From Laspinema olomoucense D3b (GTDB lineage Bacteria > Cyanobacteriota > Cyanobacteriia > Cyanobacteriales > Laspinemataceae), in assembly GCF_025370785.1 (NCBI RefSeq), contig NZ_JAMXFA010000001.1, positions 107,902-171,901 on the forward strand: a stretch of 64,000 nt of DNA, given 5' to 3'. The position numbers were made by a program, and so were the translations under genes. The notes below the pieces were generated by a model. The model was not told where the DNA came from, made no database searches, and saw only the letters and a program-made list of their open reading frames with translations. Shown here piece by piece: positions 6,672 to 63,067 of the stretch; the stretch's first letter is position 1; each line of letters begins with the position of its first letter.

Positions 6672-7084
6672 TTTGAATCAGCACTTAAGCTCCCTAGCTT
6701 CCTGAGAAAGTAAGGTTTAGGTTGGGTCATGCTCGTTCTCTTTTCAAGACAGAAGAACGACTGAAGTCGTTACTACAAATGGAGGCTAACCGGGGAGGAC
6801 AACTTCCTGAGTTTTTTAAATTCACCGGAATGACTTTAGCAGTTCGGCGGGTTTTTGTAGTAAGCACTTCACTGCTGTCTTCATTAAAATTAATATGAAT
6901 CATTAAGGATGAGCAACAGAAAACTCCCGACCCAGAGTCGCGAGTCACCCCCGAGGCCCTAAACAGCCTACGGCCCCACCGAGAGGTTTGGCGACTTTTT
7001 CGCCAGATTGGCGTGAAACGATCCCAATTCGCTTTACACTCATATTCAGTATTTTGTCGAATTCTGTATCTGACTGAGCTAACC

Positions 7085-17011: not shown

Positions 17012-17264
17012 CGGGTTTTTTTAGGATTTTACTGTTTTTATGATACGTCAAACTTTACCGCAATTTCGGAGGGATATTGCTTAGAGGTTAACGAGGCGAT
17101 CGCAGGGTTGGGGTTGAATGGGGGGAACGATTGAAGTCGTTACTACGAACGAATAAAGAGAACGAGTGAAGTCATTTCCCATAAGACTTTCAGTCGGTTT
17201 TAACCGACTTAAGCTATGAGGCGGGGGTTTTAACCCCTGCCGGGTTTTTTTTGGATTGAATCAA

Positions 17265-49184: not shown

Positions 49185-49359
49185 AAGGCGATCGCCCCTG
49201 GTACAATTCACTCCACTTTAACCCGGTTTCCCCTCAGAAGCCGGGTAATTTTTCACGGATTTTCCACAAGACTACAGTCATGAGCTTTCTTCTTTTGTAG
49301 TAACGATTTCAGTCCTTATCCCCCACCCCAACATTCCTAATAACAACATCTTTTACCTG

Positions 49360-58897: not shown

Positions 58898-61417
58898 ATG
58901 GCAGAGATCAATCCAGTAGCTTGGTTGCAGGAACGAACGGCATTAAATCGTTTATCGGAACCTGTATTAACAGCGATCGCCCAAGTCCTCCAGGAGCAAA
59001 TTTTACCCGCAAATCAGGCGATCGCCGAACCGGAGAAATTCCCCACCGGATTCTACATCCTCCGGGAAGGAGAGTTACAAACTTCCCTGAAAAATGCCCC
59101 CCCTTCCTCGGATGAATTGAGCCCCGGTTGCACGATTAACTTACGGGCATTACTCTTAGACCAACCTCCAGAACAGACGATTTCTACCGTCACCGAATCT
59201 AAATTCTGGTTTGTCCCAGCGGACCGAGTTCGGGAATTAGTCCGGCAATACCCAGAAATCACCCAAACCTTGACCCGACAACTCGCCCAAGAACTTGCCG
59301 AGGTGTCGAGTGCGCTGACTTATGAACAACAACGACAAGATGCTTTACGGCCTTATTTTGTCACCAAAGCAAAACGGGGAATTGTGGGCAGAAGTCGCTA
59401 TGCTCAACGTCTCAGACAGCAGATTAGAGAGGCGGGGTCGGATAGGCGATCGGTCTATATTTTCGGGGAACCGGGATTAGAAAAAGATAATATTGCTGCC
59501 CTGATTCACTATGGTTCCCCCCACCGTCAGCAACCGATCGTCAAAATCAACTGTGGGATTCTCCAAAAAGGGGGGGCAGAACTCTTTGGACGGGCGGGAG
59601 GGAAACCAGGACTGATCGAATGGTTGGGAGAAGGGACCCTGATTCTCAACAACATTGATGAACTGCCCGAGGAACTGGTTGAGGCAGTCGCCACCCTATG
59701 CAAAACCGCCACTTATAGACCCGTCACCCGAGAAGGGGATGATCCCGCAGCCCCTAAATCCACTCCTGCCAAAATTCTAGCCATCTCAGAAAAACATCTT
59801 CCGGCGATCGCCCCGCATCTGGACCAAACCCTCAAAGTTCCTCCCCTGCGAGTCCGAAAAGCCGACATTAGCGCTCAAGTCGAGTATTATATTAGCTTGT
59901 ACTGTCGCGCCAAAGCGCTGAGCAAACCCCAACTCACCCCAGAAGCTCTCCGTCGGCTACAATCTTATGATTTTCCCGGCAATATTCGGGAATTGCAAAA
60001 CTTAGTAGAACGGGCGATCGTCCAGTCAGATTGCGCCCGAGAATTAACGGAAGAAATTTTTTGGGCAGCCCAAGGGAAGAAAAAACGATTCCGCTTGAAT
60101 TTACTGAATGCTTATCCCCAATTGCGCCATTTTCTTCGCAGTCCTTGGTGGCCCGATCGCATTAACTATGGTTTTACCGTCGTTGCCTTCGCCCTAGTCG
60201 TTGCCATCTTATTTCTGGGTCCGCAAACTCGCGATCGCAACTTTGCCCTCAACTTCTTTTGGGCCTGGTGGTGGCCGTTAATTCTATTCGCCTTTCCCTT
60301 TGTCGGTCGCTTGTGGTGTGCCGTTTGTCCCTTTATGATTTATGGAGAAATTACCCAAAAAATCTCCGAAAAATTATTAAAACACAACCTCAAACCCTGG
60401 CCGCGACAGCAAGCCGAAAAATGGGGCGGCTGGTTTCTGTTCGGCTTATTTACCCTAATTTTCCTGTGGGAAGAACTCTGGGATTTACAGAATACGGCCT
60501 ATCTCTCCGCCTGGTTACTCCTCTTAATCACCGCCGGGGCGATGATTTGTTCCGCCATCTTTGAACGGCGGTTTTGGTGTCGCTACCTCTGTCCCATTGG
60601 CGGCATGAATGGACTGTTTGCCAAACTTTCCATGACCGAATTAAGAGCACAACAAGGAACCTGTTCCGCCGAATGCAGCACCTATCAATGTTATAAAGGC
60701 GGTCCGCAAAAAGGGGAAGGGATGGAAACCAATGGCTGTCCGCTCTATTCTCATCCCGCCCAGTTAGAAGATAACCGGGATTGTGTTTTATGCATGACCT
60801 GTTTAAAAGCCTGTCCCCATCGGTCCGTTGAATTCAATCTACGACCTCCGGGAATTGATTTGTGGACCACTCATCAGCCTCGTAGCTATGAAGTCGCCTT
60901 GTTGCTGTTACTTTTAGGGGGAATATTTTTGCATCGATTGCCCGAGATTAATACAGTCCTGGGATTAGGCATTGATTTAAGCCAATTTTGGCCGCATTTG
61001 GGATTGTCATTGGCCGCATTAGGGATTCCTGCCGCCTGGGTATTACTTGCCGGGGTGGCCATTGTTGGACTAAACCGCACCTTCAAATCTAAACCCTTTG
61101 TCCAATTAGCATACGGATATTTGCCCTTAGTTTTAGGGGGAAGTTTAGCTCATTATTTGCGCTTGGGATTAGGAGAAGCGGGACGCATTTTACCCGTCAC
61201 CTTTGCCACCTTTGGGTTGAGTGGGGAAGGGTTGCCCGTGTGGATTGCACATCCAGCAGTGATTACCTTTTTGCAAGGAACCACCTTAATTGCTGGAGTG
61301 GGGTTGAGCATTCTGTTAACGCAAAAAATTGGCCGAGAGTCCCTGCGATCGCTGCTTCCCCAACATTTAGCCACCCTCGGATTAGCTTTGGGGATGTGGG
61401 TTATTATCGTGAGGTAA
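58898..61417 (+). CDS. multidomain protein: cNMP-binding domain + degenerate sigma-54-activator-type AAA+ domain + NapH/MauN-like membrane polyferredoxin
   Basis: The CAP effector-like domain has FYILREGEL. The sigma-54-interaction-like core runs GRSRYAQRLRQQIREAGSDRRSVYIFGEPGLEKDNIAALIH ... FPGNIRELQNLVERAIV, with the Walker A degenerate (GEPGLEKD) and no GAFTGA. The C-terminal membrane part carries the Cys motifs CAVCP, CRYLCP, CSAECSTYQC and CVLCMTCLKACP. Confidence 0.7.
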   Translation: MAEINPVAWLQERTALNRLSEPVLTAIAQVLQEQILPANQAIAEPEKFPTGFYILREGELQTSLKNAPPSSDELSPGCTINLRALLLDQPPEQTISTVTESKFWFVPADRVRELVRQYPEITQTLTRQLAQELAEVSSALTYEQQRQDALRPYFVTKAKRGIVGRSRYAQRLRQQIREAGSDRRSVYIFGEPGLEKDNIAALIHYGSPHRQQPIVKINCGILQKGGAELFGRAGGKPGLIEWLGEGTLILNNIDELPEELVEAVATLCKTATYRPVTREGDDPAAPKSTPAKILAISEKHLPAIAPHLDQTLKVPPLRVRKADISAQVEYYISLYCRAKALSKPQLTPEALRRLQSYDFPGNIRELQNLVERAIVQSDCARELTEEIFWAAQGKKKRFRLNLLNAYPQLRHFLRSPWWPDRINYGFTVVAFALVVAILFLGPQTRDRNFALNFFWAWWWPLILFAFPFVGRLWCAVCPFMIYGEITQKISEKLLKHNLKPWPRQQAEKWGGWFLFGLFTLIFLWEELWDLQNTAYLSAWLLLLITAGAMICSAIFERRFWCRYLCPIGGMNGLFAKLSMTELRAQQGTCSAECSTYQCYKGGPQKGEGMETNGCPLYSHPAQLEDNRDCVLCMTCLKACPHRSVEFNLRPPGIDLWTTHQPRSYEVALLLLLLGGIFLHRLPEINTVLGLGIDLSQFWPHLGLSLAALGIPAAWVLLAGVAIVGLNRTFKSKPFVQLAYGYLPLVLGGSLAHYLRLGLGEAGRILPVTFATFGLSGEGLPVWIAHPAVITFLQGTTLIAGVGLSILLTQKIGRESLRSLLPQHLATLGLALGMWVIIVR

Positions 61418-61480
61418 AAAAAGATGGAGATGCATTCGCAGCCCCTCTGGAATCAGAATTAACTCAGGAGTAACGAGATC

Positions 61481-62578
61481 GTGCTCGATAGTCTCATTAA
61501 AATTACCGTGATCGGCGTCGGGGGTGGCGGGTGCAATGCCATCAACCGGATGATTGCCAGTGATCTGTCTGGGGTTGAATTTGTAGGGATTAACACCGAT
61601 GCTAGAGCTTTAGCCCAATGCCGTGCCGATCGCCGCATTCAAATCGGGCAGAAACTCACCCAGGGGTTAGGAACTGGGGGAAATCCCCTCATCGGACAAA
61701 AAGCGGCGGAAGATGCCAGAAGTCAAATTGCCGCAGCGATGGAAGGGAGTGATTTAGTCTTTATTACCGCAGGGATGGGAGGCGGAACCGGCACAGGGGC
61801 CACACCCATTGTCGCGGAAATTGCCAAACAACAAGGGGCACTCACGATTGGGGTCTTGACTCGTCCCTTTGCCTTCGAGGGGAAACGCCGCAGTCATCTT
61901 GCCGAGGAAGCGATTACGGCATTACAGAGTCGGTTGGATACAGCGATCGCCGTTCCTAATGAGAAATTGTTGTCCGTGATTTCTGACAATATGCCGGTTC
62001 AGGATGCCTTTGGCGTGGCGGATGATATCTTGCGCCAAGGGGTACAAGGGATTTCTGATTTAATTGTGATTCCCGGGGTAGTGAATGTGGATTTTGCCGA
62101 CGTGCGATCGGTGATGAGTCGCGCCGGAACCGCTTTACTGGGGATAGGAATTGGTCAAGGACAATCTCGCGCTAGACAAGCTGCGATTTCGGCGATGTCT
62201 TCGCCCTTTTTAGAGTGTTCAATTAACGGGGCCAAAGGGGTTGTTTTTAATATTACCTGCGGCATGGATCTCACCTTACATGAAGTGAATGTAGCAGCAG
62301 CAGAAGTCTATAACGTAGTGGATCCGGATGCGAATATTATTTTCGGTGCAGTGATTGACGATCGCCTGCATGGAGAGATGAGAATGACCTTAATCGCTAC
62401 TGGATTTTCCAATGAACCGCAGGTTTCTCTTCCTCAAACCCGGGTAGTCCCGACTCCCCCCCCTCAATATCGGGTTGCCAAACCTCCAACCCCCACACCT
62501 CAACCCGAGATACCGCCTCAAAGTTGGCCCGGATTGGACCTTCCTGATTTTTTTCCCCCTCGGCGATCGCCTAGGTAG
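61481..62578 (+). CDS. ftsZ: cell division protein FtsZ
   Basis: The motifs [13 protein letters not shown] and [17 protein letters not shown] are present, and the C-terminal peptide LDLPDFF follows. The start is a GTG at 61481 with a perfect AGGAG RBS at 61466-61470. Confidence 0.9.
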
Positions 62579-62630
62579 TTGGTCATTGGTCCTTTGTCCT
62601 TAGTTGATGGGGAGGACTGGGAAGATTTTT

Positions 62631-62951
62631 CGTAGTAACGACTTCAGTCGTTTCCGCCTTACTGGCCTTTATACGGAATCCGGTTGTGATAGGTCTATAA
62701 AAACCTGCAGCGTCCAGCCCGGAGGCTACACAGACGTAGACGCGCTAGCGGCTTCGGTGAAGGGTAGCCCGAGAAGCGCGGGCTGAAGAGAAAACCGACT
62801 TTTAAAAACCGGATTTGGTATTACTCCAAGTAACGCGATCCTTAAAGAGGCGATCGCGCCAGTCCCCAAACAACAGGTACTTAATCCGCTCAGGGATAAG
62901 TGTCATGGCGTCCGCCATCACAAGAGAGCAACGACTGAAGTCGTTACTACG
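62631..62951. mobile_element. MITE (~321 bp) with perfect 22-bp terminal inverted repeats
   Basis: The left end cgtagtaacgacttcagtcgtt (62631-62652) and the right end aacgactgaagtcgttactacg (62930-62951) are exact reverse complements. The interior carries the core agcccgagaagcgcgggctgaagagaaaa shared with 7957-8163, and there is no plausible CDS inside. Confidence 0.55.
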
Positions 62952-63067
62952 AACAATCTCCTCAATCCTCCCTATAGCAGTCTGACCTGCACCTGGGAAC
63001 CGGGGGTGGGTATCAGTTTTTTGATTGAAATCCCCATTCATAAGACGGCCAAAGACTCTTCAATGGC

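Follow-up and report, generated by a model that had tools for sequence, protein, structure and literature searches.

Does an ftsZ gene lying directly behind a gene for a sensor-like membrane protein, rather than behind ftsQ, mean that cell division is wired to a redox or cyclic-nucleotide (cNMP) signal? The question is raised by a locus of the cyanobacterium Laspinema olomoucense D3b, found within a 64,000-nucleotide stretch of contig NZ_JAMXFA010000001.1 (positions 107,902 to 171,901) that is referred to as the window in this study. At positions 61481 to 62578 of the window, an ftsZ open reading frame (ORF) for 365 amino acids with a GTG start follows, after 63 bp, the co-oriented ORF of a multidomain protein of 839 amino acids (58898 to 61417); both are on the plus strand, as are all features described below unless stated otherwise. 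These coordinates agree with an earlier reading of the same DNA (the sequence-only reading), which implied that the gene was the organism's own ftsZ, moved away from ftsQ, and suggested that cell division is coupled to the redox or cNMP signal of the upstream protein. Our analysis leads to a different answer: it is nearly certain that the ORF encodes an FtsZ paralogue, named FtsZ-S in this analysis.

FtsZ-S is 100% identical to P0001 (L. olomoucense), while the canonical FtsZ of this species, P0024 (428 aa), is 68% identical to FtsZ-S overall and 73% identical over the core; according to their UniRef names, P0001 and P0024 both come from strain D3b. The gene for P0024 is located directly 3' of the POTRA_1 gene (ftsQ) at a separate locus (L082, L083). 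Oscillatoria acuminata PCC 6304, whose genome is closed (CP003607.1), has an ftsQ-ftsZ pair (427 aa) at about 2.03 Mb (L165) and a short ftsZ behind the 839-aa gene at about 3.72 Mb (L166). The canonical 427/428-aa FtsZ carries the N-terminal peptide, and both L. olomoucense and PCC 6304 have such a protein. Because L. olomoucense and the complete genome of PCC 6304 both hold an ftsQ-linked, full-length ftsZ at another locus, the ftsZ of the window is the non-canonical copy. FtsZ-S itself shows none of the features of a housekeeping FtsZ, as its gene does not follow ftsQ, the N-terminal peptide is missing, and the protein falls into a separate long-branch clade with 24 deviations at near-invariant sites. 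The gene beside the sensor is thus an accessory paralogue, so if a redox or cNMP signal acts here at all, it would act on that copy and not on core division.

The way in which FtsZ-S came by its short N-terminus can be read from a comparison with the canonical gene. A blastn alignment of the two runs from 61465 to about 62410 of the window at 70% identity, with window position 61465 corresponding to canonical nucleotide 156. The homology therefore starts at the AGGAG Shine-Dalgarno sequence that the sequence-only reading had placed in the spacer, and that we find at 61465 to 61469, 10 nt before the GTG. At this point the canonical gene reads ACC AGG AGT AAC GAT ATT GTG CCG (T-R-S-N-D-I-V-P) and its counterpart in the window reads CTC AGG AGT AAC GAG ATC GTG CTC; CAGGAGTAACGA is identical in the paralogue and the canonical gene. 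In canonical cyanobacterial FtsZ, the junction between the N-terminal peptide and the core bears the conserved motif [ED]xRSxxIVP[SG]. The alignment thus identifies the predicted Shine-Dalgarno sequence of FtsZ-S as the former Arg53-Ser54 codon pair (AGG AGT) of the ancestral ftsZ, and the predicted GTG start as the former Val codon of the IVPS junction. The codons from the Shine-Dalgarno sequence to the GTG (RSNEI) are, by the same comparison, a non-coding relic, and FtsZ-S evidently descends from a 5'-truncated copy of a cyanobacterial ftsZ. As the GTG is the old Val codon of IVPS, the N-terminal peptide of approximately 56 amino acids is absent.

The absence of the N-terminal extension typical of cyanobacteria had been noted before, with the reservation that an unusual upstream start might be used. 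That reservation can be dropped, as a TAA at 61460 to 61462 closes the ftsZ frame six codons upstream of the GTG and blocks any extension. The frame is open for 6 to 21 codons upstream of the GTG in eight sister genomes, and in all nine Laspinema-clade loci (9/9, the window included) the GTG is conserved and is preceded in frame by no ATG, GTG or TTG. The more distant member on a Logan contig (L081) likewise has a GTG start, which is preceded by CAGGAGGAAC; since both paralogue lineages share this start, the 5' truncation must be older than their split. FtsZ-S thus has a single canonical start, this conserved GTG that follows the Shine-Dalgarno sequence.

Public annotation treats this start differently. 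PGAP gives FtsZ-S inconsistent, non-canonical starts at ATC codons (window 61478 to 61483, L166 6001, L004), yielding 366 aa in L. olomoucense and 371 aa in both the O. acuminata RefSeq entry and L. palackyanum, while the GenBank record for PCC 6304 gives 365 aa. As both the short and the full-length genes are automatically named "cell division protein FtsZ", these records should be used with caution. We also noticed that the canonical ftsZ of the Laspinema lineage carries the same AGGAG-N10-GTG arrangement internally, at codons 50 to 57 (nucleotides 6148 to 6170 of L082/L083 and 3148 to 3170 of L165), and that four entries of canonical cyanobacterial FtsZ (P0051, P0075, P0077 and P0111, beginning with "MPG..." or "MPS...") have been called from the same Val codon. 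It is conceivable that internal initiation yields a short isoform of the housekeeping FtsZ.

FtsZ-S has nonetheless kept the hallmarks of the family. It matches Pfam PF00091 (Tubulin) with 155 bits (cut-off 33; E = 2.7e-45) and PF12327 (FtsZ_C) with 113 bits (cut-off 27; E = 7.3e-33), passes the TIGR00065 ftsZ equivalog model with 408 bits (cut-off 295), and aligns with the solved Bacillus subtilis FtsZ (2vam) at E = 1e-110. The Tubulin/FtsZ GTPase domain (aa 7-167; 61499 to 61981) includes R42, T65 and the G-box, GGGTGTG (aa 100-106; 61778 to 61798), which is intact by alignment to 2vam. The T7 synergy loop, NVDFAD (aa 202-207; 62084 to 62101), is intact both in that alignment and by direct reading, and the signatures GGGTG[ST]G and NxDxxD are thus both present. 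A proline-rich linker of about 53 aa, near the canonical length, leads to a variant form of the C-terminal conserved peptide (62531 to 62575), the canonical counterpart of which is GLDIPDFLQKRRPPR; it aligns with the canonical PGLDIPDFLQKRRPPR and with DYLDIPAFLRKQAD of E. coli. The conserved form of the peptide is D/E-IP-x-FL and its core motif is IPDFL (PMC11285052), and FtsZ-S has LPDFF in its place (I to L and L to F).

The gene also appears to be maintained. Its ORF is intact at nine loci of the Laspinema/O. acuminata clade (the window included) and in one more distant lineage. The ratio of nonsynonymous to synonymous substitution rates (dN/dS) for FtsZ-S is 0.035-0.062 at a dS of 0.23-0.66 against seven clade members, and 0.135 against L081; the values for the sensor gene, 0.10-0.14, are higher. 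Such ratios are a clear signature of strong purifying selection on FtsZ-S. The G+C content of the gene (0.52) is near that of the canonical ftsZ (0.54), and as it contains two HIP1 sites, it seems to be at home in this genome.

Purifying selection has acted on a protein that differs from its canonical relatives at otherwise rigid positions. When 117 canonical cyanobacterial FtsZ proteins were compared with the three paralogue clusters, 24 sites with a conservation of at least 95% in the canonical set were found to differ in all three clusters, mostly carrying the same derived residue. In E. coli numbering, which was checked against a solved chain, the changes include W to V35 at F40, A to T65 at A70 in the T3 loop (GLGAGxNP) and Q to R42 at Q47 in the T2 loop (NTDAQAL). 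The change at A70 equals a named E. coli allele, FtsZ1(A70T), which we take to be resistant to SulA and to have a lowered GTPase activity. The change at Q47 also has an E. coli relative: FtsZ(Q47K), changed on the surface that binds GTP, does not support division and probably disrupts polymerisation (PMC13423816), and is functional only with extragenic suppressors (PMC5405962). Both the Q47 and A70 equivalents are situated on the GTP-side polymerisation face. Further along, D is changed to R214 in the window protein (to R or N among the paralogues) at E. coli E219. The FtsZ C-terminal domain (aa 216-309; 62126 to 62407) bears many paralogue-specific substitutions, such as K to Q228 at E. coli E233, G to C260 at A266, E to Q233 and L to F243. 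The I to L change in the C-terminal peptide is also one of the 24.

In a neighbour-joining tree, the paralogues form one clade with 100% bootstrap support on a long branch. Kimura distances between paralogue and canonical proteins are 0.29-0.33, as against at most 0.17 among the canonical pairs examined. Between the two paralogue lineages the distance is 0.23, while canonical FtsZ proteins of Laspinema and Oxynema are separated by 0.064. The root of this tree places the paralogues as a clade outside the whole sampled set of canonical cyanobacterial FtsZ. We rejected the ancient origin that this rooting would imply and attribute it to long-branch attraction, as the RSNEIV relic and the shared CAGGAGTAACGA favour a cyanobacterial source, possibly the Laspinema lineage itself.

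The paralogue has a narrow distribution. In a collection of 5.8 billion proteins, it is represented by only three clusters at 90% identity, namely P0001 (24 members), P0002 (4) and P0003 (2), and a homology search seeded with P0003 revealed no paralogue cluster beyond these three. The named carriers are Laspinema spp., O. acuminata PCC 6304, Oscillatoria sp. HE19RPO and Phormidium pseudopriestleyi. Scanning metagenome contigs for a paralogue-specific peptide pattern gave no match, and in a protein-seeded scan of such contigs every match was an FtsZ either of canonical type or from outside the cyanobacteria; the best ones (L085, L086) carry FW.VNTDAQAL and GLGAGG.

Wherever FtsZ-S occurs, it is located directly downstream of the sensor gene and in the same orientation (L001-L007, L166 and L081, every genome with FtsZ-S). 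In L081 the order is the same, with a sensor 81% identical and an FtsZ-S 70% identical to those of the window, and with a spacer of 212 bp. The sensor gene itself is far more widespread. At least 424 stretches matching it, mostly from Nostocales, were found in contigs representing one genome per species, and the neighbourhoods of 80 of these loci were compared. At 71 of the 80, all outside the Laspinema group (L009-L080 except L016), ftsZ is absent from the available sequence downstream of the sensor; it is found in the sensor flank only at seven loci of the Laspinema clade that extend far enough. A search across the 80 loci for a conserved partner of the sensor gene found the commonest neighbour family at only 24. 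The possibility that the sensor-ftsZ adjacency is unique to this strain, posed with the original reading as a synteny result that would refute it, is thus answered in two parts: the arrangement is not peculiar to the strain, but its range does not go beyond a narrow clade.

What is the upstream protein? In Pfam it matches cNMP_binding (aa 36-118), Sigma54_activat (aa 162-277), AAA_lid_14 (aa 318-378) and Fer4_5 (aa 538-577), and against NCBIfam it gives sub-threshold matches alone, to NorR/NifA/PspF and to NapH. The features required of a sigma-54 activator are degenerate or missing. Where the NifA segment aftgavkq holds most of the GAFTGA loop that contacts sigma-54, the 839-aa protein has an eight-residue gap; its Walker A reads GEPGLEK against GESGTGK in the aligned enhancer-binding proteins (EBPs); and its Walker B reads LILNNI against LFLDEI in NifA, with NN in place of DE. 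The domain searches found no match to a helix-turn-helix DNA-binding domain, and the C-terminal half is a polytopic, Fer4_5/NapH-like membrane domain. Judged by these features, the protein is not a sigma-54 activator. To our knowledge, cyanobacteria lack sigma-54.

In the C-terminal half, Fer4_5 passes its Pfam cut-off, while the NapH/MauN model TIGR02163 reaches only 53 bits (cut-off 213); CAVCP, CRYLCP and CVLCMTCLKACP are present in the translation. The membrane part bears a likeness to the NapH/MauN polyferredoxins. The nearest solved relative of the AAA+ domain is VpsR, and both have a Walker B without DE (LND in VpsR, LNN in the 839-aa protein). Unlike VpsR-type EBPs or NapH, the 839-aa protein has no DNA-binding domain, joins cNMP-binding, AAA+ and membrane iron-sulphur modules in one chain, and remains below all NCBIfam cut-offs. 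The sensor family is well conserved as well as widespread, with approximately 66-75% identity in Nostocales, Chroococcidiopsidales and others. "Sensor-like redox/cNMP fusion protein", as it had been called, is a fair descriptor, and this combination of a cNMP-binding domain, a degenerate AAA+ domain and a NapH-like 4Fe-4S domain is, as far as we have checked, uncharacterised.

The 63-bp spacer between the two genes (61418 to 61480) was said to lack a terminator, and our analysis bears this out. Scans of the spacer and the adjoining DNA for terminator-like and sigma-70-like consensus sites gave none above the shuffled background, although a sigma-70 consensus captures cyanobacterial promoters poorly, and folding of the spacer RNA was no better than that of shuffled sequences (z = -0.72). 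The spacer is well conserved across seven Laspinema-clade loci, and CAGGAGNAAC is retained before the GTG in L081, where the 212-bp spacer replaces the 63-bp one. Co-transcription of the sensor gene and FtsZ-S is plausible because the 63-bp spacer holds no terminator-like site and because the adjacency is kept wherever FtsZ-S occurs. Among seven Laspinema-clade genomes, variability at third codon positions is about 0.49 overall but lower at the junction: the final 20 sensor codons (61358 to 61417) show 0.25, and the opening 40 codons of ftsZ-S (61481 to 61600) show 0.30, with other windows reaching 0.35. A signal for regulation or translation initiation embedded at the junction might account for this drop, as might chance.

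Several known systems help to interpret FtsZ-S. The closest is the canonical cyanobacterial FtsZ itself, such as that of Anabaena PCC 7120 or P0024, which has the same fold and family, G-box, T7 loop, linker and C-terminal peptide. FtsZ-S differs from it in lacking the N-terminal peptide, in not being encoded beside ftsQ, in its 24 substitutions and LPDFF motif, and in its long branch. In cyanobacteria the N-terminal peptide comprises 20 to more than 80 aa ahead of the core (PMC6175996). Its removal has been studied in Anabaena PCC 7120 (Corrales-Guerrero et al. 2018, PMC6175996), and the resulting ΔN-FtsZ, like FtsZ-S, lacks the peptide, coexists with the full-length protein, and is truncated within a few residues of the same boundary. 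This protein still binds full-length FtsZ and bundles more, while its interaction with SepF is undetectable; it does not support division alone, and when predominant it causes enlarged cells and asymmetric division (PMC6175996, PMC7766704). The Anabaena protein is an artificial deletion, whereas FtsZ-S occurs naturally, has a gene of its own that diverged long ago, and shows further changes in the core and C-terminus.

Accessory FtsZ paralogues of Hyphomicrobiales are reported to inhibit or tune division (bioRxiv 10.1101/2025.09.29.679267). Like FtsZ-S, those paralogues (Agrobacterium FtsZ1 and FtsZ3, Sinorhizobium FtsZ2) are encoded outside the division cluster, are maintained within their clade and have their own substitution pattern, and they have been proposed to tune division. 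Most of them, however, are truncated C-terminally, so that linker and C-terminal peptide are gone while the N-terminus remains, and FtsZ-S is the reverse; it belongs to a different phylum and is of independent origin. FtsZ-S does not have the Rhizobiaceae/Phyllobacteraceae-type form either, in which the GTPase domain stands alone or with a minimal linker and no C-terminal peptide follows. A third comparison is with the chloroplast pair FtsZ1/FtsZ2 (FtsZB/FtsZA), in which a single compartment likewise contains two FtsZ proteins that descend from cyanobacteria. One member of the plastid pair provides stability, and the other makes the ring more dynamic (PMC12343686, PMC11285052). That duplication occurred within the host lineage and has no connection with FtsZ-S. 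The C-terminal peptide of FtsZ-S resembles the FtsZ2 type.

Taking the evidence together, we favour, on balance, the notion that FtsZ-S, a selected, 5'-truncated FtsZ paralogue, is expressed from a sensor-FtsZ-S operon and serves as an accessory modulator of the Z-ring. In Laspinema, the sensor gene and FtsZ-S would be transcribed as a two-gene operon, as suggested by the short spacing, the separate Shine-Dalgarno sequence and the lack of consensus signals, and FtsZ-S would be translated from that Shine-Dalgarno sequence. The protein would bind GTP and either co-assemble with or cap filaments of the canonical FtsZ, probably forming no ring alone, thereby altering the assembly or turnover of the Z-ring. 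How much FtsZ-S is made would in that case depend on the control of the sensor operon. A modulator role is plausible because loss of the N-terminal peptide has the phenotypes seen in Anabaena and because the GTP-side face includes the equivalents of Q47 and A70. A more specific proposal, which we put forward tentatively and think less likely than not, is that this clade of discoid-celled Oscillatoriales has a natural two-FtsZ system that evolved independently of chloroplast FtsZ1/FtsZ2. In such a system, full-length FtsZ would build the ring, and FtsZ-S, lacking the N-terminal peptide, altered on its GTP-side interface and produced from the cNMP/redox-sensor operon, would co-assemble with or cap the polymer and set the frequency of septation or the turnover of the ring according to the signal.

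Several points weigh against this interpretation. The operon is argued from spacing and from the lack of consensus signals, and the sigma-70 scan is a poor detector of cyanobacterial promoters; the 212-bp spacer in L081 has room for a promoter of its own. With two independent lineages known, the sensor-ftsZ-DUF928 block could have been conserved by shared ancestry. The sensor gene is widespread without an ftsZ neighbour, so it has no need of FtsZ-S. In Anabaena, ΔN-FtsZ-GFP was not integrated into native rings (reviewed in PMC7766704), and by analogy FtsZ-S could act apart from the ring. The expected effects of the Q47R and A70T changes are extrapolated from E. coli alleles. The link to the cNMP/redox sensor is the weakest part of the proposal.

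Two alternatives keep some standing. FtsZ-S might be tied to the 839-aa protein and not to the divisome, its filaments being recruited or regulated by that protein for some task outside septation, for example to remodel membranes or thylakoids or to position a complex. This would fit with the adjacency kept in both paralogue lineages; in addition, the LPDFF in place of IPDFL and the loss of the N-terminal peptide, which has been implicated in SepF binding, could retarget FtsZ-S. Some members of the FtsZ superfamily do occur in membrane-remodelling contexts (PMC2875224), and such a role would resemble that of FtsZm of magnetotactic bacteria or of FtsZ-like families whose partners remodel membranes. 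However, most carriers of the sensor gene have no FtsZ-S, the sensor lacks any neighbour that is conserved throughout, and a protein with 73% core identity to the canonical FtsZ would more simply co-polymerise with it. We regard this alternative as unlikely.

It is also rather improbable that the adjacency has no regulatory meaning, the truncated copy having landed behind the sensor gene by chance to become an accessory or partly redundant FtsZ with a promoter of its own. Only two lineages are known, the DUF928 gene further downstream is syntenic too, so that the block may simply have been inherited, and the 212-bp spacer of L081 is easily accommodated; an embedded promoter could moreover explain the drop in third-position variability (0.25 and 0.30 versus about 0.49). 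This is opposed by the 63-bp spacer, which holds no promoter-like site, and by the state of the window, where the downstream side has been rearranged, with an element resembling a miniature inverted-repeat transposable element (MITE) in place of DUF928, while the sensor-ftsZ junction has remained intact.

The remaining alternatives can be set aside more firmly. That FtsZ-S is an inhibitor-insensitive spare or decoy, with GTP-side changes that resist a SulA- or MinC-like or phage-encoded inhibitor, is very unlikely: the A70T equivalent does match E. coli FtsZ1(A70T), and FtsZ-targeting phage proteins have been documented (PMC13423816), but the neighbourhood has no defence or phage context, and a protein without the N-terminal peptide may not sustain division alone. 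It is scarcely credible that the window gene is the sole, housekeeping ftsZ, relocated from ftsQ and stripped of its N-terminus, with division wired to a redox/cNMP signal; the name "cell division protein FtsZ", the pass in the equivalog model and the place close behind the sensor gene would suit this view, but it is ruled out by the ftsQ-linked second copy that encodes a canonical, peptide-bearing FtsZ in L. olomoucense (L082/L083) and in the complete PCC 6304 genome (L165), and it is contradicted by the deviation of FtsZ-S at 24 sites at least 95% conserved in canonical proteins. Finally, the long branch and the 5' truncation might suggest a functionless, decaying duplicate, but this is effectively ruled out by a dN/dS of 0.035-0.062, below that of the sensor gene, with the ORF intact at every locus examined, all catalytic motifs intact, and the Shine-Dalgarno sequence and GTG conserved.

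Cyanobacteria have been stated to have a single FtsZ (PMC11285052), and a search of the available literature for a second cyanobacterial FtsZ, or for the FtsZ of Laspinema or O. acuminata, found nothing relevant. The novelty lies in an accessory FtsZ shortened N-terminally instead of C-terminally, whose phylum and genomic partner are both new for such paralogues, although the genes were already in databases under a generic name. Two-FtsZ systems of chloroplasts have been treated as an innovation that followed endosymbiosis, yet a clade of free-living cyanobacteria, including the closed genome of PCC 6304, keeps a second, selected FtsZ. FtsZ-S is in effect a natural counterpart of the engineered ΔN-FtsZ of Anabaena, and it offers a comparison for studying the N-terminal peptide's role, the divergence of paralogues after duplication, and the tuning of the ring by a second subunit.

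Some minor observations concern the surroundings of the two genes. In L081, PCC 6304 and five other loci, FtsZ-S is followed by a DUF928 gene on the opposite strand. In the window, a 369-bp MITE-like element (62607 to 62975) lies just 3' of ftsZ-S and occupies the slot of the minus-strand DUF928 gene found in the sisters (PCC 6304, L001 and others, and L081). The element has 46-nt terminal inverted repeats that are 89% complementary, and further copies of its 24-nt end motif, TTCGTAGTAACGACTTCAGTCGTT, are present at 6756 to 6779 (minus strand), 17126 to 17149 (minus strand) and 49294 to 49317 (plus strand), with none expected by chance. Some database entries carry implausible taxon labels: the sensor gene occurs on a metagenome-assembled contig labelled "Sphingobacterium thalpophilum" (L009, CALRTB020000016.1), and two proteins (P0122 and P0078) bear odd labels, "Vampirovibrionales" on a Laspinema-type FtsZ-S and "Candidatus Parcubacteria" on a cyanobacterial FtsZ. 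These labels are probably errors of binning or labelling.

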